Shown piece by piece: positions 8,697-54,014 of a stretch of DNA of 64,000 nucleotides (positions within the stretch are counted from its first letter, which is position 1; the number at the start of each line of letters is the position of its first letter). The notes under the pieces are model-generated. The model was not told where the DNA came from. It saw nothing but the letters and a program-made list of their open reading frames with translations, and searched no databases. Made by a program: the position numbers and the translations under genes. Origin of the DNA: an uncultured Clostridium sp. (GTDB lineage Bacteria; Bacillota; Clostridia; TANB77; CAG-508). The stretch is taken from positions 24,879-88,878 of the forward strand of contig CAZDPV010000002.1 of assembly GCA_964507565.1 (NCBI GenBank), given 5' to 3'.

Positions 8697-10828
<2,132 letters not shown>

Positions 10829-10865
10829 AATATACAAAACAAAATATTATATAGAGGTAAATTAG

Positions 10866-11159
<294 letters not shown>

Positions 11160-11174
11160 AAGAGGAGAGAATTT

Positions 11175-11744
11175 ATGATACAAACAATAATGTATAATGT
11201 TAGTAAAAGTGCAATTCCAATGTTAATATACTTAGGAATAATAGTATTTACTGGATTCCTCATAAATTTCTCAACAAAAAAATTTGATATTCATAAAAAA
11301 ACAGTTATGTTTGGAGGAATGTTAGTTAAACTTCATAGAAGGCAAATAATCTCAATAACTGCAGTTATGATAAGAACATTTCTAATAATATATGCATCTA
11401 TAAACTTTAAAGAAAATTTGGTATTGTACTTTACGATGATTATTATGGCAGATATAGTTTATATTTTTATGAATCCCAAAAAAATAGTATTTGAAATTAT
11501 AAATACTTCTGCACAGGGAATTTTAATATATATAATAAGTCTACTAAGCACATATCGAGTTGAAATTAGTGATGAACTATACGTAAAACTAATGCAAACA
11601 TTGCTTATTATTTTTATAATTGTGTATGCAATATACTTTTTATTTAAAAATTTTGAAGAAATAATATCAAAAAAATATAAAATAACAAAAAGAGAGAAAA
11701 AAGACCAAGAATTGAAGGGAGAATTAAATGAAAAAAATAGCTAA
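11175..11744 (+). CDS. Polytopic (about 5 TM) membrane protein of unknown family; speculative minimal stator or a-subunit substitute
   Basis: GAGGAG RBS. Hydrophobic segments include AIPMLIYLGIIVFTGFLINF, IISITAVMIRTFLIIYASI, LVLYFTMIIMADIVYIFM, AQGILIYIISLLSTY and LMQTLLIIFIIVYAIYFLF. There is a buried Arg in TM2 and an Asp in TM3. IRTFLIIYAS loosely resembles the a-subunit LRLFGNMYAG helix. The C-terminal tail is K/E-rich. Confidence 0.6.
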   Translation: MIQTIMYNVSKSAIPMLIYLGIIVFTGFLINFSTKKFDIHKKTVMFGGMLVKLHRRQIISITAVMIRTFLIIYASINFKENLVLYFTMIIMADIVYIFMNPKKIVFEIINTSAQGILIYIISLLSTYRVEISDELYVKLMQTLLIIFIIVYAIYFLFKNFEEIISKKYKITKREKKDQELKGELNEKNS

Positions 11745-12505: not shown

Positions 12506-15500
12506 ATGAATAAAAATGAAATAAAAGATAAACCAAAATTACATAAAAAAGGTAAAATAGCAAATCTAATAAGAAGCAATATACCAATGTTTCTAATAGT
12601 ATCAATTGGGCTACTAATAATATTATTAGTGGCACTTTATTATATATTTATGCACTTTGCTCCAGTATATGTAATCGAAAAAAGTGGATATGCAGTAAAG
12701 GATAAATTAATATATCAAGGATTACAGACATCAAATTTTAGTAGTGCAGAAAAACGAGTTAGCCTATTAGAAATTTCAGAAGAAGATACTCTATACAAAA
12801 AAATAAACAGTTATTATATTGGTGGAAATAGTAAAAAAGCTATAAACTTAAATTATCCAATATATTTAGAAGATTCAGCAATGCTAAATTTAAGTAAAGA
12901 AATGAATTTGATCACAAATTCTTTTGAAGAGGTAGGAGGATATCCAAATTTTACAATAATAGATGGAAAGATGTATAATGAAAAAGATTTAACAAGAGCA
13001 GATAGCAATGAATACATATTTCTTAAAAATAAAGAGAATTTGTTTGTAAATATTAAAGAAATATATATAAAGACTTCTACAAATGAATATAAAATACCAA
13101 TAAATAGTATTATAAATTTTAACAAAGAATTTGTTAGTTATTATAAATTACAAGACAAAGATAACTTAGAATATAGTGTAATACAAGATATAGACTTAAG
13201 TAGTATAATTACAATAAATAATGAAAGTGATAATTATGAAAATATATTAAAGAAACTTAAAATTATACAAGAAGAAAAGAAACAGGATGTAATTGTAAAT
13301 GAAATAGAAGAACCTGTTAAAAATGAAACACCCAAAAATGAAATAACGGAAAATAAAGAAGAAGAAAAAACGGACGATGAAGAAAAAAAATATATTGCTC
13401 CAGAAGTAAAATGTACAGACTTTACTGCAAATGTTTATACTGCAAAGACGAATTTATATATAAGTGACCCAAGCGGAACGATTCAAAAAGCAGTAGAATT
13501 TACAATATACAAAGATGGTAAGGTATATCAAAGAGCTCAAACTTTAGTAGGAGGAAACATTTTAATAAGTGGACTAATGCCAGATTCAAAATATTCAATA
13601 ACAGGAGAGTACACATACAAAAAAGAATCAGGAGAAAAAGTAATAAAAACATTTTATGAAGGTACGTTTAATACCAATAGATTAGAAACACTAGAAACTA
13701 TAAATTTGGAATTTGAGAATGGAGAAATATTTCCAACAAAGATTGAAATAAAAGATTTAAAAATAAATAATGATTTATATAATGACGAAGTTTTATATGG
13801 AATATCAAAAATAGTATTGGATACAGGAAAATCTAAATATAATTTAAGAGCTTCACAAATAAAAGAACTACTAAATGGAAATAAAATAACATATCAAACC
13901 GACCAAAATATAACAAGTAATAGTAATATAAAATATAAATTCCATATATATGATAAATTTGAAAATGAATTATCAGTCTCAAATAGTGAAGGGGAAACTA
14001 TAACTTCAAAAAGAGCTCCAACTTTAGTATTAAATGCAAAAAGTCAAAATATAACAGAAGTAAATGTAGGAATTAAAGTTAATAACAAGGATAACGTTAT
14101 AATAGAAAACTATAAATATGCTATATACGATGGGGAAGGGAAAGAAGTAGAAAGCCAAAACTTAAAATCATTACCAAGCGAAATTAAGATAAGAGATCTA
14201 GACCCTAATAAATTCTATGTAATAAAAATATTTGGAGATTATGATTTGGAAAACAATCAGGGAAAAACATATAATGTTGAACTGGGGGAAGCAAAATTTA
14301 CGACGTTACCAATATCTTCACTAGGATATGTATACATTGATGATAACTTAAAAGATATAAAAAGTAACCAAACAACAATTTCTATAAAAATAAATACTGA
14401 AAAAACTGATACTAGATTGGTAGAAATATTATCACAATTTAATATAAAAATAAAATCAAACAAAGATAATAAAGATACTCAAGACTATAACTTATCAAAC
14501 GAAGACCTTCTCAAAATAAAGCAGGGAAATGAATTTGAATACATATTCCAAAATCTAAATTCTAACACTAAATATTCTATTGAAGTAGAAACGAGGGCAA
14601 AACAAGGAGCTTCAACGGAAAAAGTAGGTGTAAATTTCGAGATAACGGACTTTATTACACTTAAGGAATCTGCTAGTGTACAAATTAAAAATCAATTTGT
14701 TACAGGAGAAATAATAGATTTTGATGCAAAAATAGTAGATAAAGATGAAGCTGTTTTAAATAATTCTGTACGTATGGAATTAAGGGACGAAATGGATAAG
14801 CTACTATCAATAGAAGATATGAAAACAAATGAAGAATATAAAAGAGAGACATTCAATAAATTGAGTAGTGGAAAAACATATAAAATATTATTTTACGCTG
14901 ATGAGTATAATGAGGGAAGTAAAGATGATACATACAAATCAAACTATCTTCTTAAAAAAATACAAGTTGTTACTGAGGAGGGGATAAGTGGAAATTTAAG
15001 ACTAAGTGAACTTAATAAAAAAGAAAACGGAAAAAATCTAATTGATATGGCTTCAGAAGTAAAATGGTATGTATATCCAAATTTTGACACAGGAGACTGG
15101 TATGGAAAAGAGTATAATGAAGTAACAGAAACATTGTCAATTGGAGGACATGGAAACAGTAGAAGATGTGTATATGACTTAACAGATTATTCAGGACAAA
15201 CTGTAACGATGTCTTTTAAGGCAAAGCGTATTACTAAGAACTCAAGCACTCTATATATTCAAAATGCAAGAACAGATAAAAATAGAACAATAGTTAGTGA
15301 CATAAATGAAACAGAATGGAAAAGTTATTCATATACCATAAAACTTGATGAAAGTGGATACCTTGGCTTTTATGTACAAGGTGGTGATGGAGTTCAAATA
15401 AAAGAATTACAGGTTGAACTGGGATCTAAGCAAACTCCATATCAAAAATATAAATATAATATGAGAACTAGATTACAAGTAAATTTAATTGACAAAAGAA

Positions 15501-18500
15501 ATGAAATAGAGTCGAACGAATATTTCATAAAAGAATATAAAAACAATGAGCTTATTGAAACTAAAAACTTTCAAGAAATAGATGAGAGCAACATAGTAAA
15601 AGATGTAATAAAAGAATTTTGGGTAGATGAAGAAGGAGAATACAAGTTTCAGTTAGTAATAAAGATAAGAAACAGAGAATATATACTAGATACACAAGAA
15701 ATTAAAACTGAAAAAGGAAAAGAAATAAAAGGAATTTATCAATATTCGGATTTTAAGTTGATCCAGCCAAATGGGAACTATACAGTATTTTGTGATTTAG
15801 ATTTTACAGTAGAAAGTAAACAATCATGTTCTTTTGGATATACATGGGACGAAAGATTTTCTTTTAATGGAAGCATAGATTTTAACGGACACAAAATTAT
15901 AAAAGATGCGTATGGAAATAATAGAAGTTGGCCTATATTCCCTAGAATAGGAAAAAACGGATATCTAAAAAATATAGTTATGGATGTAAGCCTAAGAAAT
16001 AATGTAGAAGTAAGAGAATTCTATGGATTATTTTATGTAAACTCTGGAACAATAGAAAATCTAGAAGTTAATTTATTAGAAAGTACAAAATATGGAAATA
16101 TACAAACTCATCTAATAGGTTTAACAAACTATGGAACAATAAATAAATTTGTTATAAATTCAAAGGTACCATACTATGGAAATTGTAGAGTAACACTGGG
16201 ATTGTATAACAATTATGGGACAATTAAAAATGGATACTTATATGGCAGTCCAATTGATGTATTTGGAGATATACCAGAAGAAATTGGATATAGATATGCA
16301 GCTGGACTGGTATTACAATCATATGGAAGTGGACAAATATCAAATGTTTATAGTTTAATAAATGTTAATGTGGAAGACCAAACTACTACTGGAAGAGAAA
16401 ATGTATCTAATATAGTAGAACATAATTACGCACACATAGATAATATTTACTCAGTAGGAACCGGAAATACAATTGAAATGTCACATGGACCATCAGTTGC
16501 ATATAATAATGGAAAAATAAATAATAACTATTACTTTGCAGATAAAGTATTTAATAACTCATATAATAATAAAACTACCAAACTTGCATTATTAGATGAA
16601 CAATTTCAAAATCAAATACTAAATAGTGAAGATGCATTTAATATAGATGATCTTATTTCAAGAGGATATTATCCACAAGTTGTTATGCCAGATTGTATGC
16701 CACGACAGGAATATATCAACCTACCTAAAGTAGATGATGCAGACTTACCAGATATAATTTCAACTAACATAATACAACAAGGCTCAGATACGGTAAAAGT
16801 TAGATTTAGTATAAATAATCCATCTGGAGAAAAAATTCAAAACATAAGTGTACAAAACCTACAAGTAAGAATAGAATCACAAAATTATGCAGATGGAAAA
16901 AGTGAAGTAATAGCAACACTACTAGAACCTACAAAGTATGTATCAACATATAATGTTCTAAGTATAACTACAAAAGGTGCATTCAATATACCATATACTA
17001 GAAAATATGCAAGCAATGAAAGAATAATAAATGTGGATTTATATAGGCAGATAAATTCTATATCAGATTGGAACAATATATCAAACCATACAGATGAAAA
17101 CTTTATGCTACTAACAGATTTAGATTTTAAAAATGAAGGAAGTTCTATATCAATAACTAAAACCTATTATGGAAAATTAGAAGGACAGGGTCACACCATT
17201 AAAAATATAAAGTCAAATAGAGGACTTCTTGCAACATTTACTGGACAAATAAATAATTTATTTATTGAAAATTATTATAATGAATCAGCATCAACAGACT
17301 ATACTGGAGTAATAGAATATTTAAATGGCGGAATAGTAAATAATGTACACATTAAAGGATTAGAGATAGACGTAAATCAAAAAAGAATAGGTGGAACAAT
17401 TACGTGTGGAGGCCTTGTTGGATATACTAATAGTGGCTCAGTAATAAAAAACAGCTCAATTGTAGATGCAACTATTATATCAAATGCAAAACTAGATAAT
17501 GCAAGATTTGGCGGATTAGTAGGATTATCAGACCAACTAGTAATAGATAACTGTTTTGCACAAAATGTAGATATTTCAGCTAATAAAAGTATTTATTATG
17601 AAGGAGTAGGAGGACTAATAGGAAGAGGAACTCCTTGTTACATAACTAATTGCTACTCGACAGGTAAAATTTTTTCAGATGGAGATAGATGTGGAGGAAT
17701 TATCGGAAACAGTAATACAAGCGGAACCCTAACAAATTGCTATAGCTTAGTAAATGTAGATAGTTATGGAGAATATATAGGAGGAATTATTGGATATAAT
17801 CTTACACCAACTTCATGCTTATCTATTGGAAATATTTATACTAGACAAGATACAAAAAACATATCTAGAACATCTGGATATCAAATAAGTAAAAAGATAA
17901 ACTATGCTTATGAGAATCAACTAATAAATGGATATATAAATGAAAATGAATTAGATTCAAATGTACTAAGTAGAGACGAAATATTTAAAAAATCCAATTA
18001 TTTAAGTGAGCTTAAATGGGATGATAATTACAATTATGATGGATTATCTAATTATATACTTCCAAAACTATATTACACAGATAAAAAAGAACTACTACCT
18101 AATCAAGAAGATAATACAATTTCAATAGACAGAGAAATAAAAGTAGAAGAGGTTCAAGCAGAGAAAACAGACGTTAATACTGTTGGTGTAAGAGTTGTAG
18201 TAAATAATCCAGGAAACAAACAAATTAAAAATGTAATAATTGATGACATGAATTCAATAATCTCAAAATCAATTTTTGATAATGGAAAAACTTATATAGA
18301 CTTAGTAACAACGCCTAAAAGATATTATGACAGCTATAAAATCTCAAGCATTGTATATGATGACAATGGAGAAGAAAAATCAAAAGAAACAGAAAATAGA
18401 ATTGATGTTAAATTTTATAAAGAAATATATAACTACAATGACTGGCAATCAATAGAAAAAGATACATTTCAAAATTATAAACTTATGAATGACATTGACT

Positions 18501-21500
18501 TTGAAGGAAAAAGTGAAGTAAATTATAATGTTACAATGGCTAGATTCGAAGCGGTAGGTGATAATAAAACATTAAAAAATATTACATTAGCAGAAATTGA
18601 GCAACAATCTGGACTAATAAACAAAATTTCCATAAATTTAGAAAATATAAATTTCGAAAATATTAACATTACATCTACTAAGTCTGGAAATGCAGTAGGA
18701 ATAATTAGAAAAGCAAGTGGAAATGTAACAAACATCAATTTTAAAGACATAACAATAACCGCAAAAAAAGTTTCTTATGTGGGATGCTTTGCTGTGGTAG
18801 ATTCCGTAACGAAAGATGTTGGACTAGAACACATTACATGCTATGGAATACACTACGTTGGTGGATATGCAGGTTCTGTCTCGAATTTAGGAAAAAATAT
18901 AAATGGAAACAACATCACGATTATTTCAACAGGAAATTATGTCGGTGGAATAGTTGGACTAAATGGTAATGGAATAGAGCCAAATCATTATAACATAAAT
19001 ATAAGTAATTCAAATGTTACAGGATATGATGTTGTTGGTGGACTTGCTGGACAATCTCCTAATATAATGGGTGCGAAAGCTACTTTTGTAACAGTAAATG
19101 GACATAGCAATGTTGGAGGAATGTATGGATATATATATGACTCTTGGGATGGATATAGCAATATTGTAACGGATTCAAATATAGCAGGTTCAGGTTCAAA
19201 TATTGGTGGATTAGCAGGACAATCAACAGACTGGTGGGGAGGAATTAGAACTGTTAAAAACAGTACTGTTACGGGTAAAAATTCAGGATCAAACAACGTG
19301 GGAGGAATCTTTGGATACTCAACAGGAGCATGTAATGCTATGAATACAATAGATGTAACTGTTACAACATTAGGAAGCAATGTAGGTGGAATTATAGGAA
19401 ACTGGAATAGATCGAATTCAACATCTGGATACTGGAGTACAGATAATGTAACGCTAACAGGATATTCAAATGTAGGAGGTTTGGTTGGTTATCATAAAGC
19501 AGGAAGAATAAATTATGCATATAGTAATGCAAAAGTAACAGCAACAGGGTATGCAGCAGGAGGAATATCTGGATATTTGGCCAATACTGGAATGACAGCA
19601 ATAACAAATGATACAGCAATAGTACAAGTTTATGTAGCTAAATCTACTGTAATTGCTCCAATAAATGCAGGAGGAATATTTGGAAAAGTTGAAACAGACT
19701 TTTATATGCCAGTATCTTTATATACTAAAATATTTGTAGAAGCCAACGTAAAATCAAATTATGACACGACATCTTCAATGATTGTGGGTTCAGACAAGAC
19801 AATGAATAGTCAATTATCAAAAATATACATCTACCAATACAGCAAGATAAATGAAAATTACATTACAAAATATAACGACAATATAGAAGCAAATAATTTC
19901 TTAAATGAAAGTAATTTAAAGCTAGCAAAAACATATTCTTCAACACTAGGATTTAATACAGGGGTATTTAATACGAATATGTTATCAAGTAATATTTATC
20001 CAACAATAAAATATGGTAGAGATGGAAATACAATGGAGCAAAGAGGAATTTCATTGCCAATGGATCCAGTAGACGTAGTTATAAATTTAGAAGAAATACA
20101 AACAATGGATTTGAAAGAAGATGAATATCCACTTATGGTAGCATCTAATTTCTTAATTAACTTAAATACTGAAAACGACCAAAAAGTGAATAACTTACCA
20201 ACGTATAGTGCATATCCAATAAGTGTAAATGAGTTTAATATAGATTTTAGTAAAATAGACGAAAATGCTTTCTTTGAATGCTATGTAAATGGTAGAAGTG
20301 CTGTAAAACAATATATAAAAAATAAAACATATACATTTAAATATGACTTTAAAACTAATATTGAAATCAATATAGGAAAAGATGATGTGGTAAAAACATT
20401 AACAATTATACCAAGTGATATAAATAAACGAACAAGTTTAAAGGGAGAAAGCATTGCATATATAAATGAAAATAAATTATATGTAAATAATGAGGAAAAA
20501 AGTGAACAATCTGTAAACTTATATGATTCCCAAGCTTTAACGAACAATGGAAAGATATACAACATATTAACTGGTGAGTATACAAATAGCAATGAAAAAA
20601 CAAATACTACAAGCATAGATGAAGAGAGCCAAAACAATAATGTTCAAAACACATTAGCATTAGAAGAAACTAAAGCGTTAGAAAAATACCAATATGATGG
20701 AAATAATATTGAAAGCTTTGGAACGTACAGCATAGTAAATGGCAATAGAAAGTCACAAATTTATATAGTAAAAAACAACAAGTTATCAGTGATAGATAGC
20801 TCATTAGATATCAAAATTTCAAACCAAGTAATTGATTTCTACAATGGAAAAGAATATCAATCAGTACTAAAAAAAGATGGAAAGATAAACAATTTAAAAG
20901 AAAGTCTAAAATATCCTAAAAATTTTAATAATAGTACAATAAAAGAAATAACAATGAATCAAGAAGAAGAAAGAAAAGAAGTAATGGTACTATATGAAAA
21001 CGGAAAGGTCATAGTATTCAATTACATGGATGGAAATGAAAAATACAATAATAATGTGAAAGAAGAAGTAAGTTTATTAGACTTTTTAAAAGAAAATTTG
21101 TTTAATGCAAATATGATATATGAAGACTTATCAGAAGAATATGAACAATGCAAACAAGTACAAGAAAAGCTAGAAGAAACTCCAATAAGTGAGCTAAACA
21201 TAAATTCGAGTTCAAATAATAGTTCATCTAATGCAACATCAAGTGGATCAAACAATAATAAAACAAATAAATACACTACAATGTACAATGCAACAAGCAA
21301 AAAATATGAAGTATATAATGAAAATGAACTATTAACAAGCAAAGAAGAGGTACCAGAATCAGAAACTACTAAGATTGAAAAAACAGAATTATTATCTAAA
21401 TATTATCTAAGTGGAATAAAAGAAAAATCAAATTCTAATAAAAATAATGGTACGGTTTGGATAATATCAACAATAATTGGAATTTTAATAATTCTCATAA

Positions 21501-21562
21501 TATTATACAAAGTAAACAACAGAAAAAGAATAGCAATTAAAAAAAATACAAATAAAAAATAA
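12506..21562 (+). CDS. Giant (3018 aa) envelope protein with TM helices at both termini, FN3-like repeats, a CBM-like jelly-roll and GLUG-motif beta-helix arrays
   Basis: CAGGAG RBS. N-terminal TM (IPMFLIVSIGLLIILLVALYYIF, about nt 12584-12652). FN3-like signatures include MPDSKYSITGEY, LDPNKFYVIKIFGDY, LNSNTKYSIEVETRA and SSGKTYKILFYA. A CBM-like segment spans about 15060-15450. F-x-G-x-(L/F)-x-G-x-G-H-x-I-x-N modules are present (FNGSIDFNGHKIIKD, YYGKLEGQGHTIKNI). About 10 consecutive x-V-G-G-(L/I)-x-G repeats span about 18850-19690. An S/N-rich linker precedes the C-terminal TM VWIISTIIGILIILIILY (21455-21508), which is followed by a basic tail. There is no LPXTG and no HEXXH. Confidence 0.85.
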   Translation: MNKNEIKDKPKLHKKGKIANLIRSNIPMFLIVSIGLLIILLVALYYIFMHFAPVYVIEKSGYAVKDKLIYQGLQTSNFSSAEKRVSLLEISEEDTLYKKINSYYIGGNSKKAINLNYPIYLEDSAMLNLSKEMNLITNSFEEVGGYPNFTIIDGKMYNEKDLTRADSNEYIFLKNKENLFVNIKEIYIKTSTNEYKIPINSIINFNKEFVSYYKLQDKDNLEYSVIQDIDLSSIITINNESDNYENILKKLKIIQEEKKQDVIVNEIEEPVKNETPKNEITENKEEEKTDDEEKKYIAPEVKCTDFTANVYTAKTNLYISDPSGTIQKAVEFTIYKDGKVYQRAQTLVGGNILISGLMPDSKYSITGEYTYKKESGEKVIKTFYEGTFNTNRLETLETINLEFENGEIFPTKIEIKDLKINNDLYNDEVLYGISKIVLDTGKSKYNLRASQIKELLNGNKITYQTDQNITSNSNIKYKFHIYDKFENELSVSNSEGETITSKRAPTLVLNAKSQNITEVNVGIKVNNKDNVIIENYKYAIYDGEGKEVESQNLKSLPSEIKIRDLDPNKFYVIKIFGDYDLENNQGKTYNVELGEAKFTTLPISSLGYVYIDDNLKDIKSNQTTISIKINTEKTDTRLVEILSQFNIKIKSNKDNKDTQDYNLSNEDLLKIKQGNEFEYIFQNLNSNTKYSIEVETRAKQGASTEKVGVNFEITDFITLKESASVQIKNQFVTGEIIDFDAKIVDKDEAVLNNSVRMELRDEMDKLLSIEDMKTNEEYKRETFNKLSSGKTYKILFYADEYNEGSKDDTYKSNYLLKKIQVVTEEGISGNLRLSELNKKENGKNLIDMASEVKWYVYPNFDTGDWYGKEYNEVTETLSIGGHGNSRRCVYDLTDYSGQTVTMSFKAKRITKNSSTLYIQNARTDKNRTIVSDINETEWKSYSYTIKLDESGYLGFYVQGGDGVQIKELQVELGSKQTPYQKYKYNMRTRLQVNLIDKRNEIESNEYFIKEYKNNELIETKNFQEIDESNIVKDVIKEFWVDEEGEYKFQLVIKIRNREYILDTQEIKTEKGKEIKGIYQYSDFKLIQPNGNYTVFCDLDFTVESKQSCSFGYTWDERFSFNGSIDFNGHKIIKDAYGNNRSWPIFPRIGKNGYLKNIVMDVSLRNNVEVREFYGLFYVNSGTIENLEVNLLESTKYGNIQTHLIGLTNYGTINKFVINSKVPYYGNCRVTLGLYNNYGTIKNGYLYGSPIDVFGDIPEEIGYRYAAGLVLQSYGSGQISNVYSLINVNVEDQTTTGRENVSNIVEHNYAHIDNIYSVGTGNTIEMSHGPSVAYNNGKINNNYYFADKVFNNSYNNKTTKLALLDEQFQNQILNSEDAFNIDDLISRGYYPQVVMPDCMPRQEYINLPKVDDADLPDIISTNIIQQGSDTVKVRFSINNPSGEKIQNISVQNLQVRIESQNYADGKSEVIATLLEPTKYVSTYNVLSITTKGAFNIPYTRKYASNERIINVDLYRQINSISDWNNISNHTDENFMLLTDLDFKNEGSSISITKTYYGKLEGQGHTIKNIKSNRGLLATFTGQINNLFIENYYNESASTDYTGVIEYLNGGIVNNVHIKGLEIDVNQKRIGGTITCGGLVGYTNSGSVIKNSSIVDATIISNAKLDNARFGGLVGLSDQLVIDNCFAQNVDISANKSIYYEGVGGLIGRGTPCYITNCYSTGKIFSDGDRCGGIIGNSNTSGTLTNCYSLVNVDSYGEYIGGIIGYNLTPTSCLSIGNIYTRQDTKNISRTSGYQISKKINYAYENQLINGYINENELDSNVLSRDEIFKKSNYLSELKWDDNYNYDGLSNYILPKLYYTDKKELLPNQEDNTISIDREIKVEEVQAEKTDVNTVGVRVVVNNPGNKQIKNVIIDDMNSIISKSIFDNGKTYIDLVTTPKRYYDSYKISSIVYDDNGEEKSKETENRIDVKFYKEIYNYNDWQSIEKDTFQNYKLMNDIDFEGKSEVNYNVTMARFEAVGDNKTLKNITLAEIEQQSGLINKISINLENINFENINITSTKSGNAVGIIRKASGNVTNINFKDITITAKKVSYVGCFAVVDSVTKDVGLEHITCYGIHYVGGYAGSVSNLGKNINGNNITIISTGNYVGGIVGLNGNGIEPNHYNINISNSNVTGYDVVGGLAGQSPNIMGAKATFVTVNGHSNVGGMYGYIYDSWDGYSNIVTDSNIAGSGSNIGGLAGQSTDWWGGIRTVKNSTVTGKNSGSNNVGGIFGYSTGACNAMNTIDVTVTTLGSNVGGIIGNWNRSNSTSGYWSTDNVTLTGYSNVGGLVGYHKAGRINYAYSNAKVTATGYAAGGISGYLANTGMTAITNDTAIVQVYVAKSTVIAPINAGGIFGKVETDFYMPVSLYTKIFVEANVKSNYDTTSSMIVGSDKTMNSQLSKIYIYQYSKINENYITKYNDNIEANNFLNESNLKLAKTYSSTLGFNTGVFNTNMLSSNIYPTIKYGRDGNTMEQRGISLPMDPVDVVINLEEIQTMDLKEDEYPLMVASNFLINLNTENDQKVNNLPTYSAYPISVNEFNIDFSKIDENAFFECYVNGRSAVKQYIKNKTYTFKYDFKTNIEINIGKDDVVKTLTIIPSDINKRTSLKGESIAYINENKLYVNNEEKSEQSVNLYDSQALTNNGKIYNILTGEYTNSNEKTNTTSIDEESQNNNVQNTLALEETKALEKYQYDGNNIESFGTYSIVNGNRKSQIYIVKNNKLSVIDSSLDIKISNQVIDFYNGKEYQSVLKKDGKINNLKESLKYPKNFNNSTIKEITMNQEEERKEVMVLYENGKVIVFNYMDGNEKYNNNVKEEVSLLDFLKENLFNANMIYEDLSEEYEQCKQVQEKLEETPISELNINSSSNNSSSNATSSGSNNNKTNKYTTMYNATSKKYEVYNENELLTSKEEVPESETTKIEKTELLSKYYLSGIKEKSNSNKNNGTVWIISTIIGILIILIILYKVNNRKRIAIKKNTNKK

Positions 21563-21579
21563 AGAATATATAAAAAACG

Positions 21580-21608
21580 TTGACATAAGCAACAAAAAAA
21601 TGTATAAT
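21580..21608 (+). promoter_or_regulatory. Sigma-A type promoter of the thrS leader
   Basis: TTGACA (21580-21585), a 17-nt spacer, then TATAAT (21603-21608). This is the first clear promoter after the long upstream gene array. Confidence 0.65.
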
Positions 21609-21614
21609 AAAAAT

Positions 21615-21856
21615 AGTTTAAGAAAGCTAATGGAAGGAAAAGTAAAGTAAAAGTTACTTATAAGAGAAAATTAGTCGTGGGCTGAAAGCTAATTTAAGCA
21701 AACATACTTGAAAAACTACCTTCAAAAAGTGCTAGTGAGTAAGCTAGACGTTTAAGCTACGTTATAAGCTATAAAAATAAGTGAAAAATCCGGGTGGAAC
21801 CGTACTAAATAAAGTACCCCAGAACATATCTTTTTAGATATGTTCTGTTTTTTATT
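21615..21856 (+). promoter_or_regulatory. T-box riboswitch leader (threonine specifier) with terminator/antiterminator
   Basis: Stem I elements are present (AGAGA box in taagagaaaa; gggctgaaag GNUGA-like). The specifier region gaaaaACUACCuuc contains Thr codons ACU/ACC. A T-box sequence aatccGGGTGGaACCGtac lies at about 21788-21806. An intrinsic terminator follows: agaacatatc (21821-21830) pairs with gatatgttct (21837-21846), then a T-run. Confidence 0.8.
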
Positions 21857-21898
21857 TTATAAAGACTATCTAGATTTGTAAGAAGAAAGGAAAATATT

Positions 21899-23824
21899 AT
21901 GATTAAAGTAACTTTAAAAGATGGCTCTTGTAGAGAAGCTCAAAATGGAATATCAGTATGTGATTTTGCTAAATCTATTAGTGAAGGATTAGCAAGAATG
22001 GCAACATGTGCAAGGATAGATGGAAAGGTTGTAGATTTAAGAACAAAAATAGAATCTGACTGCAAGCTAGAAGTATTAACTTTTGACTCAGATTTAGATG
22101 GACAAAAAGCTTATTGGCATACAACATCACACATTATGGCTCAAGCAGTTAAACATTTATTTCCAGATACAAAATTCGCAATTGGACCTGCTATTGATGA
22201 TGGAGGTTTTTACTACGATTTCGATACAACAGAAAATTTTACAGAAGATGATAAATTAAAAATAGAAGAAGAAATGAAAAAAATTATTAAGGAAGACTTG
22301 CCAATTGAAAGATTTGAACTACCAAAAGAAGAAGCTTTAAAACTTATGGAAGGGCAACAATATAAACAAGAACTTATAAATGACTTAGCAGATGATGTAA
22401 CTATTTCATTCTATAAACAGGGAGATTTTACAGACCTTTGCGCAGGACCACACTTAATGAGTACAGGAAAAGTTAAAGCAGTTAAATTACTATCTAATTC
22501 AGGAGCATATTGGAGAGGAAATGAGCATAACAAAATGCTACAAAGAATTTATGCAATATCATTCCCTAAACAAAGTGAACTTGATGAATATATGCAAAAA
22601 TTAGAAGATGCTAAAGAAAGAGATCACAGAAAAATAGGAAAAGATTTAAACTTATTTATGACACATAAATTAGTAGGCTCAGGATTTCCAATGTATTTAC
22701 CAGATGGAGCAACTATAAGAAGACTTTTAGAAAGATATATTCAAGATAAGGAAATTGCTTTAGGATATGAACATGTGTATACTCCATCTTTAGCAACTAC
22801 AGAATTATACAAAACAAGTGGACACTGGGACCATTATAAAGATGATATGTTCCCTATTATGAAAATGGACAATGAAGAATTGGTTTTAAGACCAATGAAC
22901 TGTCCTCATCATATGTTAATTTATAAAAACAGTTTACACTCATATAAGGATTTACCAATTAGAATTGGAGAACTAGCACATGATTTTAGATACGAAAATA
23001 GCGGAGCTGTTTGCGGTCTAGAAAGAGTTCGTGAAATGTGTCAAAATGATGCACATTTATTTGTAAGGCCAGACCAAATAAAATCAGAAGTTGGAAATGT
23101 AGTTAAATTGATTTTATCAGTTTACAAAGATTTTGGATTTAAAGATTACAAATTCAGATTATCATTAAGAGACAAAAAAGATAAAGTTAAATATATAGAC
23201 GATGATGAAATGTGGGAAACAGCAGAAAGTCAGCTAAGAGAAATATTAAATGAACTTGGACTAGACTTTTATGAAGCAGAAGGAGAAGCAGCATTCTATG
23301 GACCTAAATTAGATGTACAAATTAAATCTGCTTTAGGACATGATGTAACAGTTTCAACTTGTCAATTAGACTTTGCACTTCCTGAAAGATTTGAATTAAC
23401 ATATATAGGAGAAGATGGAAAAGAGCATAGACCAGTTGTAATTCATAGAGCTATCCTAGGAACACTTGACAGATTTATGGCATTTTTAATAGAAGAAACT
23501 AAGGGAGCATTACCACTATGGCTTGCACCACATCAAGTAAAAATACTTCCAGTTTCTGATAAGCATTTAGAATACGCTCAATTATTGAAAGAAAAAATGG
23601 TTAAAGAGAAAATTCGTGTTACAGTTGATGATAGAAACGAAAAAATAGGATATAAGATACGTGAAGCACAACTTTCAAAAGTACCATATATGCTAATAGT
23701 AGGAGACAAGGAAGCCCAATCTAATACAGTTTCTGTAAGAGATAGAAAGCAAGGAGATTTAGGACAAATGGCTTCAAGTGAGTTTATTGAAAAAATTACA
23801 AAAGAAATTAAAACAATAAATTAA
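21899..23824 (+). CDS. thrS: Threonine--tRNA ligase (full length: TGS, editing, class II core, anticodon-binding domains)
   Basis: 641 aa. Contains HTTSHIMAQAV (editing/second additional domain). Class II motifs include RPMNCPHHMLIY, FRYENSGAVCGLERVREMCQNDAHLF and VIHRAILGTLDRF. It is preceded by a Thr T-box. Confidence 0.97.
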   Translation: MIKVTLKDGSCREAQNGISVCDFAKSISEGLARMATCARIDGKVVDLRTKIESDCKLEVLTFDSDLDGQKAYWHTTSHIMAQAVKHLFPDTKFAIGPAIDDGGFYYDFDTTENFTEDDKLKIEEEMKKIIKEDLPIERFELPKEEALKLMEGQQYKQELINDLADDVTISFYKQGDFTDLCAGPHLMSTGKVKAVKLLSNSGAYWRGNEHNKMLQRIYAISFPKQSELDEYMQKLEDAKERDHRKIGKDLNLFMTHKLVGSGFPMYLPDGATIRRLLERYIQDKEIALGYEHVYTPSLATTELYKTSGHWDHYKDDMFPIMKMDNEELVLRPMNCPHHMLIYKNSLHSYKDLPIRIGELAHDFRYENSGAVCGLERVREMCQNDAHLFVRPDQIKSEVGNVVKLILSVYKDFGFKDYKFRLSLRDKKDKVKYIDDDEMWETAESQLREILNELGLDFYEAEGEAAFYGPKLDVQIKSALGHDVTVSTCQLDFALPERFELTYIGEDGKEHRPVVIHRAILGTLDRFMAFLIEETKGALPLWLAPHQVKILPVSDKHLEYAQLLKEKMVKEKIRVTVDDRNEKIGYKIREAQLSKVPYMLIVGDKEAQSNTVSVRDRKQGDLGQMASSEFIEKITKEIKTIN

Positions 23825-23850
23825 AACTGTAAGACAAAACATATTTATTA

Positions 23851-23890
23851 AAACAGTATTTTTAGAAAATACTGTTTTTTTTTATTTTTT
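23851..23890 (+). terminator. Intrinsic terminator after thrS
   Basis: aaacagtatt (23851-23860) pairs with aatactgttt (23868-23877), followed by a long T-run. Confidence 0.75.
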
Positions 23891-23931
23891 AATGATATAA
23901 TTTTATAAAATATAGGAAAAGGAATTGTATT

Positions 23932-25134
23932 ATGGAAACAACGGAAATAAATAAATTAGGAAAAGAACTAGAGCTATATAAAACAGTAGATTATATTGGA
24001 AAGGGATTCCCAATAATTTTGCCCAGAGGAGCTAAAATACTAAAAATAATTAAAGATTATGTTGAACAAGAAGAAGAAAAAGAAGGGTATAAAATTGTAC
24101 AAACTCCTAGCGTCTCAAATGCAGAAATATATATAATAGAAGACAGATTTGAAAATGAAAAAGATGAAATGTTTATAATAAAAAATAATGAATCAGATAA
24201 TGATTGCGATGAAAAGTCAACAAACCAAATAGTATTAAGACCATATGTACAACCGTTTCATTGTAGTATTTATAAATCAAAACAATATAGTTATAAAGAA
24301 TTACCAGTAAAGTTTAGTGAAACATCAACAGTATTTAGAAATGAAAGAGATATAAAAGGAATAACTAGAACAAGGCAGATAACTATGTCTGATGCAAGTA
24401 TATATTCTACACCTGAAAAAATAGAAAAAACTATTAGAGAAGCAATTATGATGCAACAAAGATTTATAAAGAAGCTAAATTTAGATGTAGAATATGTAAT
24501 AGAAACATGGAATGATACAAAAAAAGAAGAATATATTGGAAATATTGAAGAATGGGACTTTCTTACAGAAAGTATGAAATCTGCGTTAAATAGCTTAAAT
24601 ATAGAATATAAAGAAAAAGAAAATGCAAAAATGTATGGACCAACAATAAAAATATTATATAATAAAAAATACTTTTCAAGCTTACAAATTGACTTTGAAA
24701 TTACCCATAGATTTAATTTAAAATATATTAGCGAAAATAATGAGGAAAAATTCCCAGTATATATGCACTTAACATTTGTTGGAAGTTATGAAAATATGCT
24801 TGGCATTCTCTTAGAAAAATACAAGGGTACTTTTCCACTGTGGTTATCACCAACGCAAATTATGATAATAGACGAAGGTGAAGAATTTGATGACTATGCT
24901 GATAATCTGAAAAATGAATTTATAAAAAATGGATTAAGAGCAGAAACAGACAATTCAAGTAATAGCAGTCAAAACAAAATAGGAAAAGCGGTAGACTTTA
25001 AAATACCATATATAGTAACTATTGGAAAGAAAGAATTAAACCAAAATACAATAAAAATTCACGGAGTAGATAAACCATACAAAATAGAAGAATTTATAGA
25101 GGAGGTTCTAAATTGCAACAAGATTCAAAAGTAA
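23932..25134 (+). CDS. Truncated, degenerate ThrRS paralogue (class II core plus anticodon-binding domain only)
   Basis: 400 aa, collinear with thrS residues about 242-641. Conserved blocks include FPIILPRGAKI, LRPYVQPFHCSIY, FRNERDIKGITRTRQ and GTFPLWLSPTQI. The N-terminal TGS and editing domains are absent, and several catalytic and zinc positions are substituted (see finding). Confidence 0.8.
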   Translation: METTEINKLGKELELYKTVDYIGKGFPIILPRGAKILKIIKDYVEQEEEKEGYKIVQTPSVSNAEIYIIEDRFENEKDEMFIIKNNESDNDCDEKSTNQIVLRPYVQPFHCSIYKSKQYSYKELPVKFSETSTVFRNERDIKGITRTRQITMSDASIYSTPEKIEKTIREAIMMQQRFIKKLNLDVEYVIETWNDTKKEEYIGNIEEWDFLTESMKSALNSLNIEYKEKENAKMYGPTIKILYNKKYFSSLQIDFEITHRFNLKYISENNEEKFPVYMHLTFVGSYENMLGILLEKYKGTFPLWLSPTQIMIIDEGEEFDDYADNLKNEFIKNGLRAETDNSSNSSQNKIGKAVDFKIPYIVTIGKKELNQNTIKIHGVDKPYKIEEFIEEVLNCNKIQK

Positions 25135-27311
25135 TAGAAGAAAATAATTTTGAAGAAATATTAAATTACATTGGACTAAATATGAATGAAAATTATCAAG
25201 AAGATAATCAAAAGCCTGAATATAATATTGCAAAAGCCTATGACAATAATGTTTTATATAAAATCTATAAAAAAATAAATATAAATGATATAGTTATTTT
25301 AATAAGCAATACAGATAGAACAACAGATATAAAAGAAAGATATGAAACTGCTAAACCAATATTCACATATATAAAGGAAAACAAAAATGATTTTAAAAAT
25401 ATAGTAGAAAGAGCATCTATACAAGAAATAAAAAAATTGGAAAACATACAAGAAGAATTTAAAACAAAAATACCATATTTTATAAAATATGATAAAAACT
25501 ATTTATGGCAGATTTATTACTCAAAAGCAGATGATAAATATTTTATGCTATTTCCAGCAAAAGAAGGAGAAACATCAGTAGTACTATACTTACTAAAAGA
25601 ACAATTAAAAAAAGAAGATAATTATATATATATACCAATCTGCAAAGAAGAATATAGTGAAGAAATACTGTCTAAAAAGCAAATAAGTGATATGGAAAAT
25701 TATATTTGGCTATTTACTAACCAATTTCCAACCACTTATGAATATACAACTACTGATGGTAGCAAAACATTATTCTTAATTGGAGAAACTAATATTCAAG
25801 AAAATTTAAAAACAAAATATAAAATAGAAATAAAAAATAAAGATGAAGCGGAAAAACAATATGCACTATTTAAAGCATTATTTATATTAACAACAGAAAC
25901 TAACTATAATTACGAATTTGAACCAAGACTTGATGAAATGGGAAAATTAGTTTTAACATACAATGATAAAATAATCTCATTTGATAATCTCGAGCAATTT
26001 ATTAAAACGGAAAACTTGGAAAAGAGAACATTGGAAAAGAGTTTAAACACGAAAATTGGAAATGAAAAAAAGTATTTAGAAGAACTAAAACAACAAATAA
26101 AAGAACAAACAGATACTTATGCAAAACAAGAGAAGCAAATTGTTATGTTTTTAAACTGCAAAAAAAGTTTTTTCAAGAGGATAAAGTTTTTTTTCTCTGG
26201 AAATAAAAAACTAAAATTAAAAATAAAAAATGATGAAGAATTACCAAAAAAAGATACAGACTTTGTTTCTGAAGAAGTAAAACAAGAAGAAAATAATCAG
26301 GAAGAAATAGTAAGTAGAACATATTCAATAGCTGACTTAATAAAAATCTGCACAGAAGCTAAGAAAATAATAGAAGAAGAAAAAAACATAAGTGCAGATA
26401 TAAAAGCATTAGAGCTAAAAAAAGAAAATATGATTAGAAAAATAGAAAACGCACAAAATTATATTGAAGAAATAGAAAAACACAAGAAAAGTATCTTTGA
26501 CTTTTGGAAATTTACTAATAAGGATAATTTACCAGAACTATCGGTAGGAGAAAAAAAAGAAGTCGAAGCAAAAGTGAAAATTGGTTTTAATTTTGAAGAA
26601 GATTTACCAGAACTTATGATAAAGGCTGATGAATTGCAAAGAAGAAAACTTTCAATAGATGAATGTAACTCTATTTATTTATGCGATAAAATTTTGCCAG
26701 CAATAAATAGCTCAATTTGTAAATGTGATACATACAAAATTGGAGAGGAATATGAAAAATTAGTTAAAGAGTATTCGCCAATAAATAAAATATCTGAATT
26801 ATTTGGTGGAATTGAAGATGACTATACTAAAATAAAAACTTTGAATAATAGAAAGCATAGAGAAAACCAAAAGAATATTTATTCAATTTTAAAAATAAAT
26901 CAAACCACAAGCGTTGATGATTTTAAAAATATAATAAAAGAAAAATCAAGACTTGTGAATGAAGCATATCAAAAAATCACTTCAATTTGCAGTATGCCTA
27001 TTTATTATACAAATAAACAAAAAGGATTTACAATTGGAAATATAAATCCGTACAAATTATTTCAAGAATTGGAATGTAATAAAATATATAAAATGAATCT
27101 AAATGAAAATTCACATATTTTATATATGAGCAATATCATATTTTATGATAATTACAATAAAACTTTACCACTAGGAATGGATGAGTCAACTGAAGTAATA
27201 ATAAAAGTCGGAGAAAATAGAAAAATCTCGGAAAAAAATATAAATATCTTAATAGAAAAAGATTTATACAATGTTGAAATAAAGCAAATAAAACTAATAG
27301 AGGAACAGTAA
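25113..27311 (+). CDS. Hypothetical 732-aa protein with a central coiled-coil/K-E-rich region, translationally coupled to the ThrRS paralogue
   Basis: TTG start at 25113, 7 nt after GGAGG (25101-25105), overlapping the upstream stop by 22 nt. I recognise no motif. There are long predicted helical segments (EKKYLEELKQQIKEQTDTYAKQEKQ; IRKIENAQNYIEEIEKHKK). Confidence 0.7.
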   Translation: MQQDSKVIEENNFEEILNYIGLNMNENYQEDNQKPEYNIAKAYDNNVLYKIYKKININDIVILISNTDRTTDIKERYETAKPIFTYIKENKNDFKNIVERASIQEIKKLENIQEEFKTKIPYFIKYDKNYLWQIYYSKADDKYFMLFPAKEGETSVVLYLLKEQLKKEDNYIYIPICKEEYSEEILSKKQISDMENYIWLFTNQFPTTYEYTTTDGSKTLFLIGETNIQENLKTKYKIEIKNKDEAEKQYALFKALFILTTETNYNYEFEPRLDEMGKLVLTYNDKIISFDNLEQFIKTENLEKRTLEKSLNTKIGNEKKYLEELKQQIKEQTDTYAKQEKQIVMFLNCKKSFFKRIKFFFSGNKKLKLKIKNDEELPKKDTDFVSEEVKQEENNQEEIVSRTYSIADLIKICTEAKKIIEEEKNISADIKALELKKENMIRKIENAQNYIEEIEKHKKSIFDFWKFTNKDNLPELSVGEKKEVEAKVKIGFNFEEDLPELMIKADELQRRKLSIDECNSIYLCDKILPAINSSICKCDTYKIGEEYEKLVKEYSPINKISELFGGIEDDYTKIKTLNNRKHRENQKNIYSILKINQTTSVDDFKNIIKEKSRLVNEAYQKITSICSMPIYYTNKQKGFTIGNINPYKLFQELECNKIYKMNLNENSHILYMSNIIFYDNYNKTLPLGMDESTEVIIKVGENRKISEKNINILIEKDLYNVEIKQIKLIEEQ

Positions 27312-27443: not shown

Positions 27444-28925
27444 TTACAATATAATGCAAATCAATCCTCCAGAACCCTCATTTACAATACGCTCTAATGT
27501 CTGCTGTAATTTTACTTGAGCATCTTCAGGCATACATGCCAGTTTGTTTTGAAGACCTTCATTAACAAGCTCATGTAAACTTCTACCAAATATATTAGAC
27601 TCCCAAATTTTCTTGGGATCATTTTCAAACTGAGAAAGAAGATATTTTACTAAATCTTCAGATTGTTTTTCACTTCCAACAATAGGAGAAATTTCAGTTT
27701 CAACATCAGTTTTAATTAAATGAATTGAAGGTGCTTTTGCTTTTAACTTTACTCCAAATTTAGAACCTTGTTTAACCATTTCAGGTTCATCTAAAATTAA
27801 ATCTTCCATAGAAGGTGTAATAATTCCATATCCCTTAGCTTTAACTTCCTCTAATGCGGGTTCAATCTTATCATATTCTGTTTTAATTTTAGAAAATTTA
27901 TAAAATGTTGAAAACAGTTCAAATTCATTGGAAATTGTTTGACCTGACATTTCTGTAAGTACCTTATAGAACAAATCGGATTTTACATTCATAGTAACTG
28001 TAACATTTCCATTCCCAAGATTTATTTCATCGACTGAACTTGACGTTACAATGTTACTTTCAGGCATTGATGCAACTGTAGCACTTACTTGTTTTATAAT
28101 TCTTACGTTTTGAAAATCTGTTTTTATTTCTTTAAACATTTCTTTTCTTAACCAGTGATCAAACCCAAGGGCATCAATCCATTTAGGATAATTTATGTTA
28201 ATTCTCTGTGTTGGAAATTCATACAACATTTTACCGAATATTTCATTTACATTATCTATATTTAGATTTGCACAGTCCATTGAAATAACAGAAACTCCAT
28301 ACTTCTCCTGTAAGGAATTAGCTAAATCCTTTGAATAATCAGAGTTCGGGTCAACACTATTTAAAACAATTACGAATGGTTTATTTAGAGATTTTAATTC
28401 TTTTGCAACTCTTTCTTCTGCTAAAATGTAATCATCACGAGGAATTCCAGAAAAGCTTCCATCTGTTGTTACTAAAATGCCAACTGTTGAATGATCTTGA
28501 ATTACTTTTTTTGTGCCTATTTCAGCTGCTTCTTCAAAAGGAATTTCATCAGCAGACCACGGAGTTTTTACCATTCTTGGAATATCATTTTCTAAATATC
28601 CAATAGCATTACTAACCAAATATCCAACGCAATCAACAAATCTTGCTTTAAATTTCACATTTCCGTTAACAGTAATTGGAACAGCCTCATTAGGAATAAA
28701 TTTGGGTTCTGTAGTCATTATTGTTTTTCCAGAACCACTTTGAGGCATTTCATCTAAAGTTCTTTCTCTTTTATATTGATTGTCAATATTAGGAATTACA
28801 AGTAAATCCATAAAATTTTTAATAAACGTGGACTTACCAGTCCTTACTGGACCAACAACACCAACATAAATGTCACCATCTGTACGCTTTGCAATATCTT
28901 CATATAATTTTGAATTGTCCTCCAT
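27444..28925 (-). CDS. spoIVA: Stage IV sporulation protein A (spore coat morphogenetic ATPase)
   Basis: The N-terminus DIAKRTDGDIYVGVVGPVRTGKSTFIKNFM carries the Walker A motif. Overall collinearity with SpoIVA ends in GGLICIIL. An AAAGGAGG RBS sits upstream on the - strand. Confidence 0.95.
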   Translation of the reverse strand: MEDNSKLYEDIAKRTDGDIYVGVVGPVRTGKSTFIKNFMDLLVIPNIDNQYKRERTLDEMPQSGSGKTIMTTEPKFIPNEAVPITVNGNVKFKARFVDCVGYLVSNAIGYLENDIPRMVKTPWSADEIPFEEAAEIGTKKVIQDHSTVGILVTTDGSFSGIPRDDYILAEERVAKELKSLNKPFVIVLNSVDPNSDYSKDLANSLQEKYGVSVISMDCANLNIDNVNEIFGKMLYEFPTQRININYPKWIDALGFDHWLRKEMFKEIKTDFQNVRIIKQVSATVASMPESNIVTSSSVDEINLGNGNVTVTMNVKSDLFYKVLTEMSGQTISNEFELFSTFYKFSKIKTEYDKIEPALEEVKAKGYGIITPSMEDLILDEPEMVKQGSKFGVKLKAKAPSIHLIKTDVETEISPIVGSEKQSEDLVKYLLSQFENDPKKIWESNIFGRSLHELVNEGLQNKLACMPEDAQVKLQQTLERIVNEGSGGLICIIL

Positions 28926-38997: not shown

Positions 38998-39190
38998 AAA
39001 GTGAATTCATTCCTGCCTGGTTCGTGCAAATTAGGATTTTAGAACCAACAAATAGATTAAAGGGAGTCCGCCTTTGAATGTGGCGTGTATGCTTAACATA
39101 ACGTTATGAAACCCAGAAGCATTCGACAAGACACCCACCTGTGTAAACAGGCTCTTAAAATTCTTAATTAACGGCCGAGGCGGGCCTTTT
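38998..39190 (+). ncRNA. ssrS: 6S RNA (RNA-polymerase-binding regulatory RNA); ends uncertain by about 10 nt
   Basis: A GC-rich island of about 190 nt in AT-rich DNA with no ORF. cctgcctggttcgt (39012-39025) pairs with acggccgaggcggg (39171-39184). aattaggattttagaacc pairs with ggctcttaaaattcttaatt, giving the long irregular helix. The central region TTTGAATGTGGCGTGTATGCT ... CAGAAGCATTCGACAAGACACCCACCT resembles, from memory, the conserved bubble-flanking sequence of E. coli 6S (GAAUGUGGCG ... GAGAAGCC...CGACGACACAUUCACCU) and B. subtilis 6S-1. It ends in a T9 run (39187-39195). Confidence 0.7.
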
Positions 39191-53744: not shown

Positions 53745-53820
53745 GGTCGCTTAGCTCAGCTGGGAGAGCATCTGCCTTACAAGCAGAGGGTCATAGGTTC
53801 GAGCCCTATAGCGACCACCA
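53745..53820 (+). tRNA. tRNA-Val (anticodon TAC)
   Basis: Manual cloverleaf: ggtcgct|ta|gctc|agctggga|gagc|a|tctgc|ctTACaa|gcaga|gggtc|atagg|ttcgagc|cctat|agcgacc|a|cca. CCA is encoded. Confidence 0.95.
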
Positions 53821-53826
53821 TTTAAT

Positions 53827-53904
53827 GGCCCGGTAGTTCAGTTGGTTTAGAACGCTAGCCTGTCACGCTAGAGGTCGACGGTTCGAGCCCGTTCCGGGTC
53901 GCCA
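53827..53904 (+). tRNA. tRNA-Asp (anticodon GTC)
   Basis: Manual cloverleaf: ggcccgg|ta|gttc|agttggttta|gaac|g|ctagc|ctGTCac|gctag|aggtc|gacgg|ttcgagc|ccgtt|ccgggtc|g|cca. CCA is encoded. Confidence 0.95.
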
Positions 53905-54014
53905 TTTTTTTATTAGAGATAATAAAGATGGTGACTTTTGTTATATTACTAAGAAATATAAATTCTTGTTATTTAAGTAATATAAAATTAAATAAACTTT
54001 CAATTAAGCAAAAC

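Follow-up and report, generated by a model that had tools for sequence, protein, structure and literature searches.

Results

A truncated ThrRS paralogue beside thrS

The DNA analysed here, hereafter the window, is a stretch of 64,000 nucleotides from contig CAZDPV010000002.1 of an uncultured Clostridium sp. (assembly GCA_964507565.1), with a Firmicutes-like G+C content of about 27%. On its forward strand, a canonical thrS gene (21899..23824) encodes a threonyl-tRNA synthetase (ThrRS) of 641 aa. It is followed by the subject of this work, a gene with an ATG start for a truncated ThrRS paralogue of 400 aa (23932..25134) that has the fold of the catalytic core and anticodon-binding domain (ABD) and a remodelled active site, and then by a gene of 732 codons with a TTG start (25113..27311), which we call ORF732. 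The thrS product scores 739.7 bits against the equivalog model TIGR00418, contains four Pfam domains (TGS, editing or tRNA_SAD, class II core and anticodon-binding) and has all its catalytic residues intact.

An earlier note on this DNA had described the 400-aa protein as collinear with the core and ABD of ThrRS and as lacking the TGS and editing domains, and our searches bear out both points. BLASTP against the adjacent thrS product aligns paralogue residues 7-376 with ThrRS 244-613 at 31% identity (E 4e-67). Pfam detects in the paralogue only PF00587 (tRNA-synt_2b, E 5e-27) and PF03129 (HGTP_anticodon, E 5.5e-13), that is, the class II core followed by an HGTP-type ABD that characterises ThrRS; TGS and tRNA_SAD are present in the thrS product and missing here. 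The best match by sequence among solved structures is the S. aureus ThrRS (E 1.4e-55), and the top matches of a Foldseek search with the AlphaFold2 (AF2) model of the paralogue are all ThrRSs (E 3e-32, TM ~0.75). The N-terminal segments INKLGKELELY / GKGFPxxLPxG and the motif-1 Pro are common to both proteins, and the motif-2 loop is 2 residues shorter in the paralogue. Against TIGR00418 the paralogue reaches 305.2 bits, below the cutoff of 383.65, and its weak match to TIGR00443 (E 0.0032) mirrors only general class II similarity. With thrS as their best family match, genes of this type are open to misannotation as a second threonine-tRNA ligase.

The spacer between thrS and the paralogue measures 107 nt. 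As the earlier note had it, it contains what is probably the thrS terminator: an AT-rich 13-bp hairpin (23850-23878, a minimum free energy stem) followed by a T-run, the whole spanning 23850..23889 on the + strand. A consensus terminator scanner did not call this hairpin, which has fewer than three G-C pairs, and the folding z-score of the entire spacer is -1.55; a lenient home-made search found comparable hairpins in 14 of 17 thrS-paralogue spacers. An extended -10-like element read from the sequence, TGATATAAT (23893..23901, +), lies 31 nt 5' of the paralogue's ATG and is possibly its own promoter. At the other end, the reading frames of the paralogue and ORF732 overlap by 22 nt, and the final codons of the paralogue contain a strong Shine-Dalgarno sequence for ORF732, GAGGAGG (25100..25106, +), 6 nt before the TTG at 25113.

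Upstream of thrS there is a promoter-like TTGACA-17-TATAAT (21580..21608, +), identified as a 12/12 consensus match only, and a probable T-box leader (21621..21857, +; Rfam RF00230, 55.9 bits, E 6.6e-11). The leader contains the T-box core GGGUGGAACC with an overlapping terminator hairpin (21820-21847, +) followed by a T-run, and ACU/ACC occurs within its specifier region. It matches RF00230 over the full length of the model, yet scores below the gathering score of 93; this model may suit the T-boxes of this low-GC clade poorly.

A remodelled active site

We examined the active site in the best 120 matches to the paralogue from a protein search space of 5.8 billion sequences. All are truncated proteins (369-449 aa, 50-63% identity), and we treat them as orthologues; 25 reference sequences served as the genuine-ThrRS comparison set. 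Residues are numbered as in E. coli (Ec) ThrRS, which was fetched and aligned with the paralogue and thrS.

The four substitutions quoted in the earlier note are real and stand in register in both the pairwise and the E. coli alignments: Cys334 to Gln, His385 to Ser, His309 to Arg (SGHW to EDRF) and the motif-3 Arg520 to Asn. Two of the three zinc ligands of ThrRS are therefore replaced in the window paralogue, just as the note had read them, and the third, His511, is retained, being His in 108/120 orthologues. These are features of the family. Position 334 is Cys in 25/25 reference ThrRSs and never Cys among the orthologues, where it is variable (Q65, S14, R9, M8, Y7, A6), whereas positions 385 and 309 have become almost fixed as Ser and Arg (119/120 each). 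Of the three ATP-phosphate ligands, only the motif-2 Arg363 persists (114 R, 6 K): at position 465 the Lys has given way to Ser (93) or Ala (20), together 113/120, and Arg520 is Asn in 93/120, with R or K in only 11. The loss of Arg520 and Lys465 argues against adenylation by the paralogue. When family and reference set are compared position by position, 65 invariant positions are common to both and 28 are "switched", conserved in each group but differing between them; the switched positions cluster round the amino-acid/zinc pocket (G308D, H309R, H336F, M338C, N382S, H385S).

With two of three zinc ligands, Lys465 and the motif-3 Arg replaced across the family, and with a score below the TIGR00418 cutoff, the paralogue is derived from ThrRS but almost certainly does not function as a threonyl-tRNA synthetase. 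The earlier note's view that it is "probably not" one is thus well supported by the >120 orthologues. One could still imagine that the protein works as a ThrRS without zinc, perhaps as an isoform for stress or zinc starvation in the manner of Anabaena T2. In favour are the preserved overall fold, motif 2 and His511, and a cysteine four residues past the lost Cys334, Cys111 of the paralogue, which is conserved in 118/120. We consider this very improbable. H385S, K465S and R520N are family-wide and the score falls short of the equivalog cutoff; the family has lost the anticodon contacts and, as described below, can do without the ABD; and known T2-type duplicates are full length, with their zinc ligands kept. 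Cys111 by itself is no evidence of a relocated zinc ligand, because human ThrRS carries the same Cys in addition to its own Cys334 equivalent.

The residues that do persist allow for a different alternative, in which the pocket still binds ATP, activates another, zinc-independent substrate and hands it not to tRNA-Thr but to, for example, a small molecule, a carrier protein or ORF732 itself. Asp383 is retained in 120/120, Glu365, Tyr462, Gln484, Gly516 and Ser517 are kept along with Arg363, and the Arg375 position is R or K. A new invariant Arg has appeared at Ec 309, the other pocket replacements are conserved and not random, and selection on the gene is strong. AsnA, the amino acid:carrier-protein ligases and PoxA/EpmA are parallels for such an enzyme. 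However, two ATP-phosphate ligands are lost family-wide, Phe379, the residue that stacks on adenine, is mostly Ile, and to our knowledge the characterised class II enzymes derived from aminoacyl-tRNA synthetases (aaRS) all keep the motif-3 Arg. We think a neo-functionalised enzyme unlikely, although it deserves to be kept in view. For the changed substrate that the earlier note had suggested, the retained motif-2 Arg/Glu, Asp383, Tyr462 and Gln484 leave some room, and the missing phosphate ligands tell against adenylation.

The anticodon-binding domain

The note had further held that the ABD looked better conserved than the core, which is not the case. Identity between paralogue and ThrRS is 30.4% in each of the two domains, and among the paralogues themselves it is the core that is better conserved (63%, against 50% for the ABD), the reverse of what genuine ThrRS shows. 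Only the first ABD strand (PLWLSPxQ) is strikingly ThrRS-like. The ThrRS anticodon segment, Ec 574-584 (RNEKIGFKIRE), is replaced and variable in the family, as is R609, and from the list of anticodon contacts (Arg574/Asn575/Lys577/Arg583/Glu600/Arg609) only Glu600 is kept; the list is that of the 1QF6 complex, and this comparison is softer than those of other residues. As a proxy for RNA binding we also compared net charge and isoelectric point, which do not differ between the paralogue and ThrRS.

One lineage dispenses with the domain altogether. In two independent assemblies (L038:4622-5518 and L052:2057-2953) the paralogue is a core-only protein of 298 aa that ends just past motif 3, and the spacer 3' of it contains no ABD remnant. 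Both copies still stand directly before an ORF732 homologue, and they are 71% identical to each other, with a non-synonymous rate (dN) of 0.18, a synonymous rate (dS) of ~1.5 and a ratio (omega) of ~0.12. Since the anticodon contacts are replaced and one lineage lacks the domain, anticodon-dependent binding of tRNA-Thr is unlikely to be the conserved function of the paralogue. The binding of tRNA-Thr or of an RNA mimic, which the earlier note had put forward, is weakened by the same observations and by the shorter motif-2 loop.

Distribution and selection

A scan of one genome per species, with an alignment as the query (a single-protein query gave no match), recovered 39 paralogue loci, all in metagenome-assembled genomes (MAGs) of uncultured gut Clostridia. 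Their hosts are rabbit, mouse, sheep, chicken and human, and they include Clostridium sp. CAG:793. In a neighbour-joining tree the paralogues are monophyletic with 100% bootstrap; their distance is 1.50 to Firmicutes-type ThrRS and 1.8-1.9 to E. coli or human ThrRS.

Between close pairs the dN/dS of the paralogue is 0.02-0.15, against 0.04-0.08 for thrS of the same genomes. The gene is functional and held by purifying selection. A duplicate on its way to becoming a pseudogene could be suspected from its faster evolution (within-family distance 0.59 vs 0.17 for thrS) and from a frameshift in one lineage. We rejected this explanation, whose probability we put at next to nothing, on account of the >120 intact orthologues of conserved length, the low omega values and the invariance of the replacement residues themselves.

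In the lineage with the frameshift (L041:8007-9183, with the same sequence in L061), a shift of 1 nt at the conserved YIGTI/EWN splits the paralogue into two overlapping open reading frames (ORFs). The split is identical in two independent assemblies; a pseudogene, a gene in two parts or an error common to both would each account for it.

An origin in phage or a role in anti-phage defence was also considered and rejected, as there are no PADLOC matches and the conserved chromosomal synteny argues against a mobile island. Among PHROG families the paralogue matches phage ThrRS-like ones; the one match of ORF732 is noise.

Pairing with ORF732

The earlier note had asked how the paralogue is distributed and whether it is linked to the downstream gene. 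The linkage is invariant: an ORF732 homologue (39-54% identity to that of the window) lies directly 3' of the paralogue in 38/38 genome loci whose sequence continues past the gene, over a range of divergence that extends to 48% identity for the paralogue and to about 40% for ORF732. Measured from the stop of the paralogue, the first ORF732 codon in the alignment mostly lies at -21 to +40 nt. The thrS side is looser: of 24 evaluable paralogue lineages, 17 have thrS upstream, at distances of 41-4192 nt, while in 7 lineages it is not found within 4-8 kb and the paralogue-ORF732 pair is intact.

This asymmetry bears on the possibility that the paralogue regulates ThrRS or thrS, either by forming a heterodimer with full-length ThrRS through the conserved class II dimer interface or by binding tRNA-Thr or the T-box leader, so as to modulate the supply of threonyl-tRNA, with ORF732 a mere neighbour. 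Adjacency to thrS in 17/24 lineages would fit, as would the INKLGKELELY / GKGFPxxLPxG segments and the motif-1 Pro that the paralogue has in common with ThrRS. There is also a precedent in the duplicated ThrRS subunits of Anabaena, which are described as trans-oligomerising (PMC4787780, as cited in PMC9437257). However, where the locus breaks up the paralogue stays with ORF732 and not with thrS, its residues for anticodon contact are gone, and one lineage has no ABD at all. Nor does a T-box core motif occur directly upstream of the paralogue at any locus; the motif is confined to the regions upstream of thrS, and a T-box of the paralogue's own was rejected for this reason. Regulation of this kind seems improbable to us.

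ORF732 itself reaches well beyond the paralogue. Targeted look-ups and 80 metagenome loci, with ORF732 clustered at 80% identity, gave 61 lineages. The paralogue precedes ORF732 in 29 of them; full-length canonical thrS is directly upstream in 10 (gaps of 64-264 nt) and lies 1-4 kb upstream in 4; 13 have other neighbours and 5 are too short to judge. Across the 27 evaluable lineages without a paralogue, those thrS genes that lie upstream of ORF732 encode intact QDDAH, GPK, HRxxxGSxER and RxEKIGYKIRE motifs, and their products are 45% to 80% identical to the window ThrRS, divergent types included. The other contexts consist of unrelated housekeeping genes, with no second recurrent neighbour among them. 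As thrS and ORF732 are adjacent in lineages that have no paralogue, ORF732 is the older of the two, and the simplest history is that thrS-ORF732 adjacency is the ancestral arrangement and predates the paralogue.

That history lends itself to a reading in which the paralogue has an independent function and is next to ORF732 for historical reasons only, through tandem birth and inherited synteny. A mirror-tree comparison would agree with it, as partial correlations between paralogue and ORF732 are similar to those of controls and give no specific signal of co-evolution. But adjacency has persisted in 38/38 loci despite the divergence of both genes, and the junctions overlap or are very short, whereas the thrS side has been rearranged repeatedly. 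We regard a purely historical association as hardly more than a slim chance, on a par with regulation of ThrRS.

Two further arrangements were seen in this survey. One lineage (L046:6442-6960, L047:1407-1925) has, between full-length thrS and the ORF732 homologue, a gene for a 172-aa YbaK/ProX-like tRNA_edit protein (PF04073), a second tRNA-quality-control gene in that neighbourhood. On a 532-kb mouse-gut MAG contig (L012:5624-7544 and 9194-11426), the tblastn matches for thrS and the ORF732 homologue are split, which points to frameshifts or assembly errors.

The ORF732 protein

The predicted structure of ORF732 comprises an N-terminal alpha/beta domain, a long helical hairpin (~290-560) and a C-terminal alpha/beta domain. 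The hairpin is a coiled coil of 270 residues between the two alpha/beta domains, with a disordered, Lys/Glu-rich tip at 366-400. The model supports a good assignment to the C3-toxin-like ADP-ribosyltransferase (ART) fold, with its split beta-sheet core. An exhaustive hidden Markov model search (E up to 1e-3) yielded 527 clusters at 50% identity, and the family ranges well below the 39-54% identity of the copies that follow a paralogue. Its omega is 0.08-0.21. The best-conserved motif, NxNKTLPxGM, is near the C-terminus; in the N-domain, the conserved R69 (86%), S137 (87%) and E210 (94%) are possible triad residues.

Other features of the neighbourhood

An ORF of 3018 aa (12506-21562) stops 337 nt short of thrS. 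It has a hydrophobic segment at either end, a repetitive beta-rich sequence and a faint Pfam "Glug" match in the public record, and is probably a giant surface protein. Convergent to ORF732 is spoIVA (27444-28925, - strand), and at many paralogue loci the order spoIVA, then a gene of the UDP-glucose pyrophosphorylase family, is kept 3' of ORF732. Other neighbourhoods of ORF732 include spoVT and a germination protease gene, which may be mere synteny of spore-formers. Further along the window there are a 6S RNA (39007-39190, 90.7 bits) and, at 53745-54087, three clustered tRNA genes.

Discussion

We have described a family of proteins in which a fold derived from an aaRS, with an incomplete catalytic set, is nonetheless under purifying selection, as in a pseudo-synthetase. 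Our preferred reading, in which we place roughly even confidence, is that the paralogue is non-catalytic and serves as a binding or ligand-sensing subunit of the ART-fold ORF732 protein. It would have arisen when a partial duplication of thrS, restricted to core and ABD, was inserted between thrS and ORF732 in one gut clade, presumably in tandem. The copy would then have lost the synthesis of Thr-tRNA along with the zinc site, Lys465 and the motif-3 Arg, and selection would have fixed a new pocket made of Asp-Arg at Ec 308-309, Phe336, Ser382, Ser385, Ser465 and Asn520. This rebuilt and conserved pocket might be used to contact a ligand or a protein, the paralogue working together with the coiled-coil ART-fold protein encoded directly downstream, to which it would be translationally coupled. 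The recurrent adjacency of thrS and ORF732 suggests that ThrRS may act as the partner where the paralogue is absent; if it filled the subunit role itself in those genomes, the paralogue would be a case of subfunctionalisation after duplication.

Several of our results weigh against this reading. A physical complex of the two proteins, and with it the subunit role, is deduced from genomic association, and birth beside ORF732 followed by inherited synteny could partly account for that association. No fusion of paralogue and ORF732 was found among the long ORF732 homologues, and the mirror-tree comparison did not set the pair apart from controls. Some catalysis, residual or altered, would be compatible with the retained motif-2 Arg/Glu, Asp383, Tyr462 and Gln484. 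The tree gives the paralogue no defined attachment point on ThrRS. As for the partner, its ART fold comes from predicted structure only: sequence searches of Pfam, NCBIfam, PADLOC and the PDB gave it no family match, coiled-coil noise aside, and the invariants of its family include no clear conserved R-S-E triad. A comparison by hhalign with a small C3/EDIN profile (EDIN-C from plasmid NC_003265 with C3stau2, C3lim and C3bot1; a homologue search returned only 9 close EDINs) was not significant (probability 2.7% and 0.1%). In its register, which allows a tentative mapping, Y631-[K/Y] of the C-domain falls on the strand of the catalytic Arg and N680-x-N682-K-T-L-P-x-G lies over C3 Q-x-E-V-L-L-P-R-G.

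A more speculative reading starts from the partner. ORF732 might be an ART-fold enzyme, or a regulator that binds NAD or ADP-ribose, whose target or partner is ThrRS or Thr-tRNA-Thr; this would explain why the gene tracks thrS across divergent Clostridia. The paralogue of the CAG-793-like clade would then be a docking subunit, decoy or sensor that mimics ThrRS, and the whole would constitute a new housekeeping circuit. We judge this quite unlikely, but if it were true it would connect an ADP-ribosyltransferase-like protein with the threonine branch of translation.

Working out the pair would assign a function to two families and might reveal a regulatory link between ThrRS and ADP-ribosylation-like chemistry. 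The paralogue family is widespread among uncultured Clostridia that live in the gut of humans, mice, rabbits and ruminants, and comes with a defined partner; ORF732 brings a toxin-type ART fold into housekeeping contexts and is adjacent to thrS in about half of the sampled lineages. We found no name for either protein in public sources, and together they look like a new two-protein module.

Comparison with known systems

Duplicated ThrRSs beside a housekeeping thrS have been described before: T2 of Anabaena, the metazoan ThrRS-L/TARSL2 and the copies that confer antibiotic resistance (PMC9437257; PMC5909460). Unlike the paralogue, all of these are full length and retain their zinc ligands and aminoacylation. 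Non-synthetases derived from aaRSs are already known as a kind; the 2022 review of aaRS duplications (PMC9437257) lists no bacterial ThrRS paralogue that is truncated and catalytically degenerate, and our literature search did not find one. Nearer in size are the crenarchaeal ThrRS-cat (PDB 3a31) and the yeast mitochondrial MST1 (PDB 3ugq), which turn up as both structural and sequence matches to the paralogue. They too lack an editing domain and are of similar length, but both are true synthetases whose zinc and ATP sites are intact, whereas in the paralogue these sites are substituted.

The ART-fold partner is equally hard to place. In comparison with the C3-like and binary-toxin ARTs (C3stau2, C3bot, CPILE-a, iota Ia, CDTa, C2-I, VIP2 and Certhrax), ORF732 has no sequence-family match, no signal peptide and no toxin context, its neighbourhoods being of the housekeeping type. 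It also has a coiled-coil hairpin of 270 residues inserted between its two alpha/beta domains, and no conserved Arg / Ser-Thr-Ser / Glu-x-Glu triad is recognised in it. That specificity for the threonine branch of translation is within reach of an ART-fold protein is shown by Tre-Thr, an ART toxin of the type VI secretion system whose substrate for ADP-ribosylation is charged tRNA-Thr (PMC13617354). For ORF732 it is a lead only: Tre-Thr is an Rhs toxin with an immunity protein, from a Gram-negative organism, with proven Arg/Glu catalysis, and its context is unrelated.

Among the closest analogues of the paralogue is HisZ, the HisRS paralogue that is the regulatory subunit of the short-form ATP phosphoribosyltransferase HisG. 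Like the paralogue, HisZ has a class IIa aaRS core, does not aminoacylate and is maintained by selection; it acts through a separately encoded partner and reuses its former amino-acid pocket, as we propose by analogy that the paralogue may do. The two differ in that HisZ stems from HisRS, lacks an ABD and has a known partner and pathway, while the paralogue stems from ThrRS, usually keeps the ABD and has as its partner an uncharacterised ART-fold protein. Pol gamma-B (POLG2), from the mitochondrial DNA polymerase gamma, also combines a class IIa aaRS-like core with an HGTP-type ABD fold; it has no synthetase activity and assists another enzyme as its accessory subunit. It differs in being eukaryotic, in its relation to synthetases of the GlyRS/ProRS type and in binding a DNA polymerase. 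HisZ, Pol gamma-B and SLIMP, each an aaRS pseudoenzyme, have each exposed an unexpected link between translation and another process.

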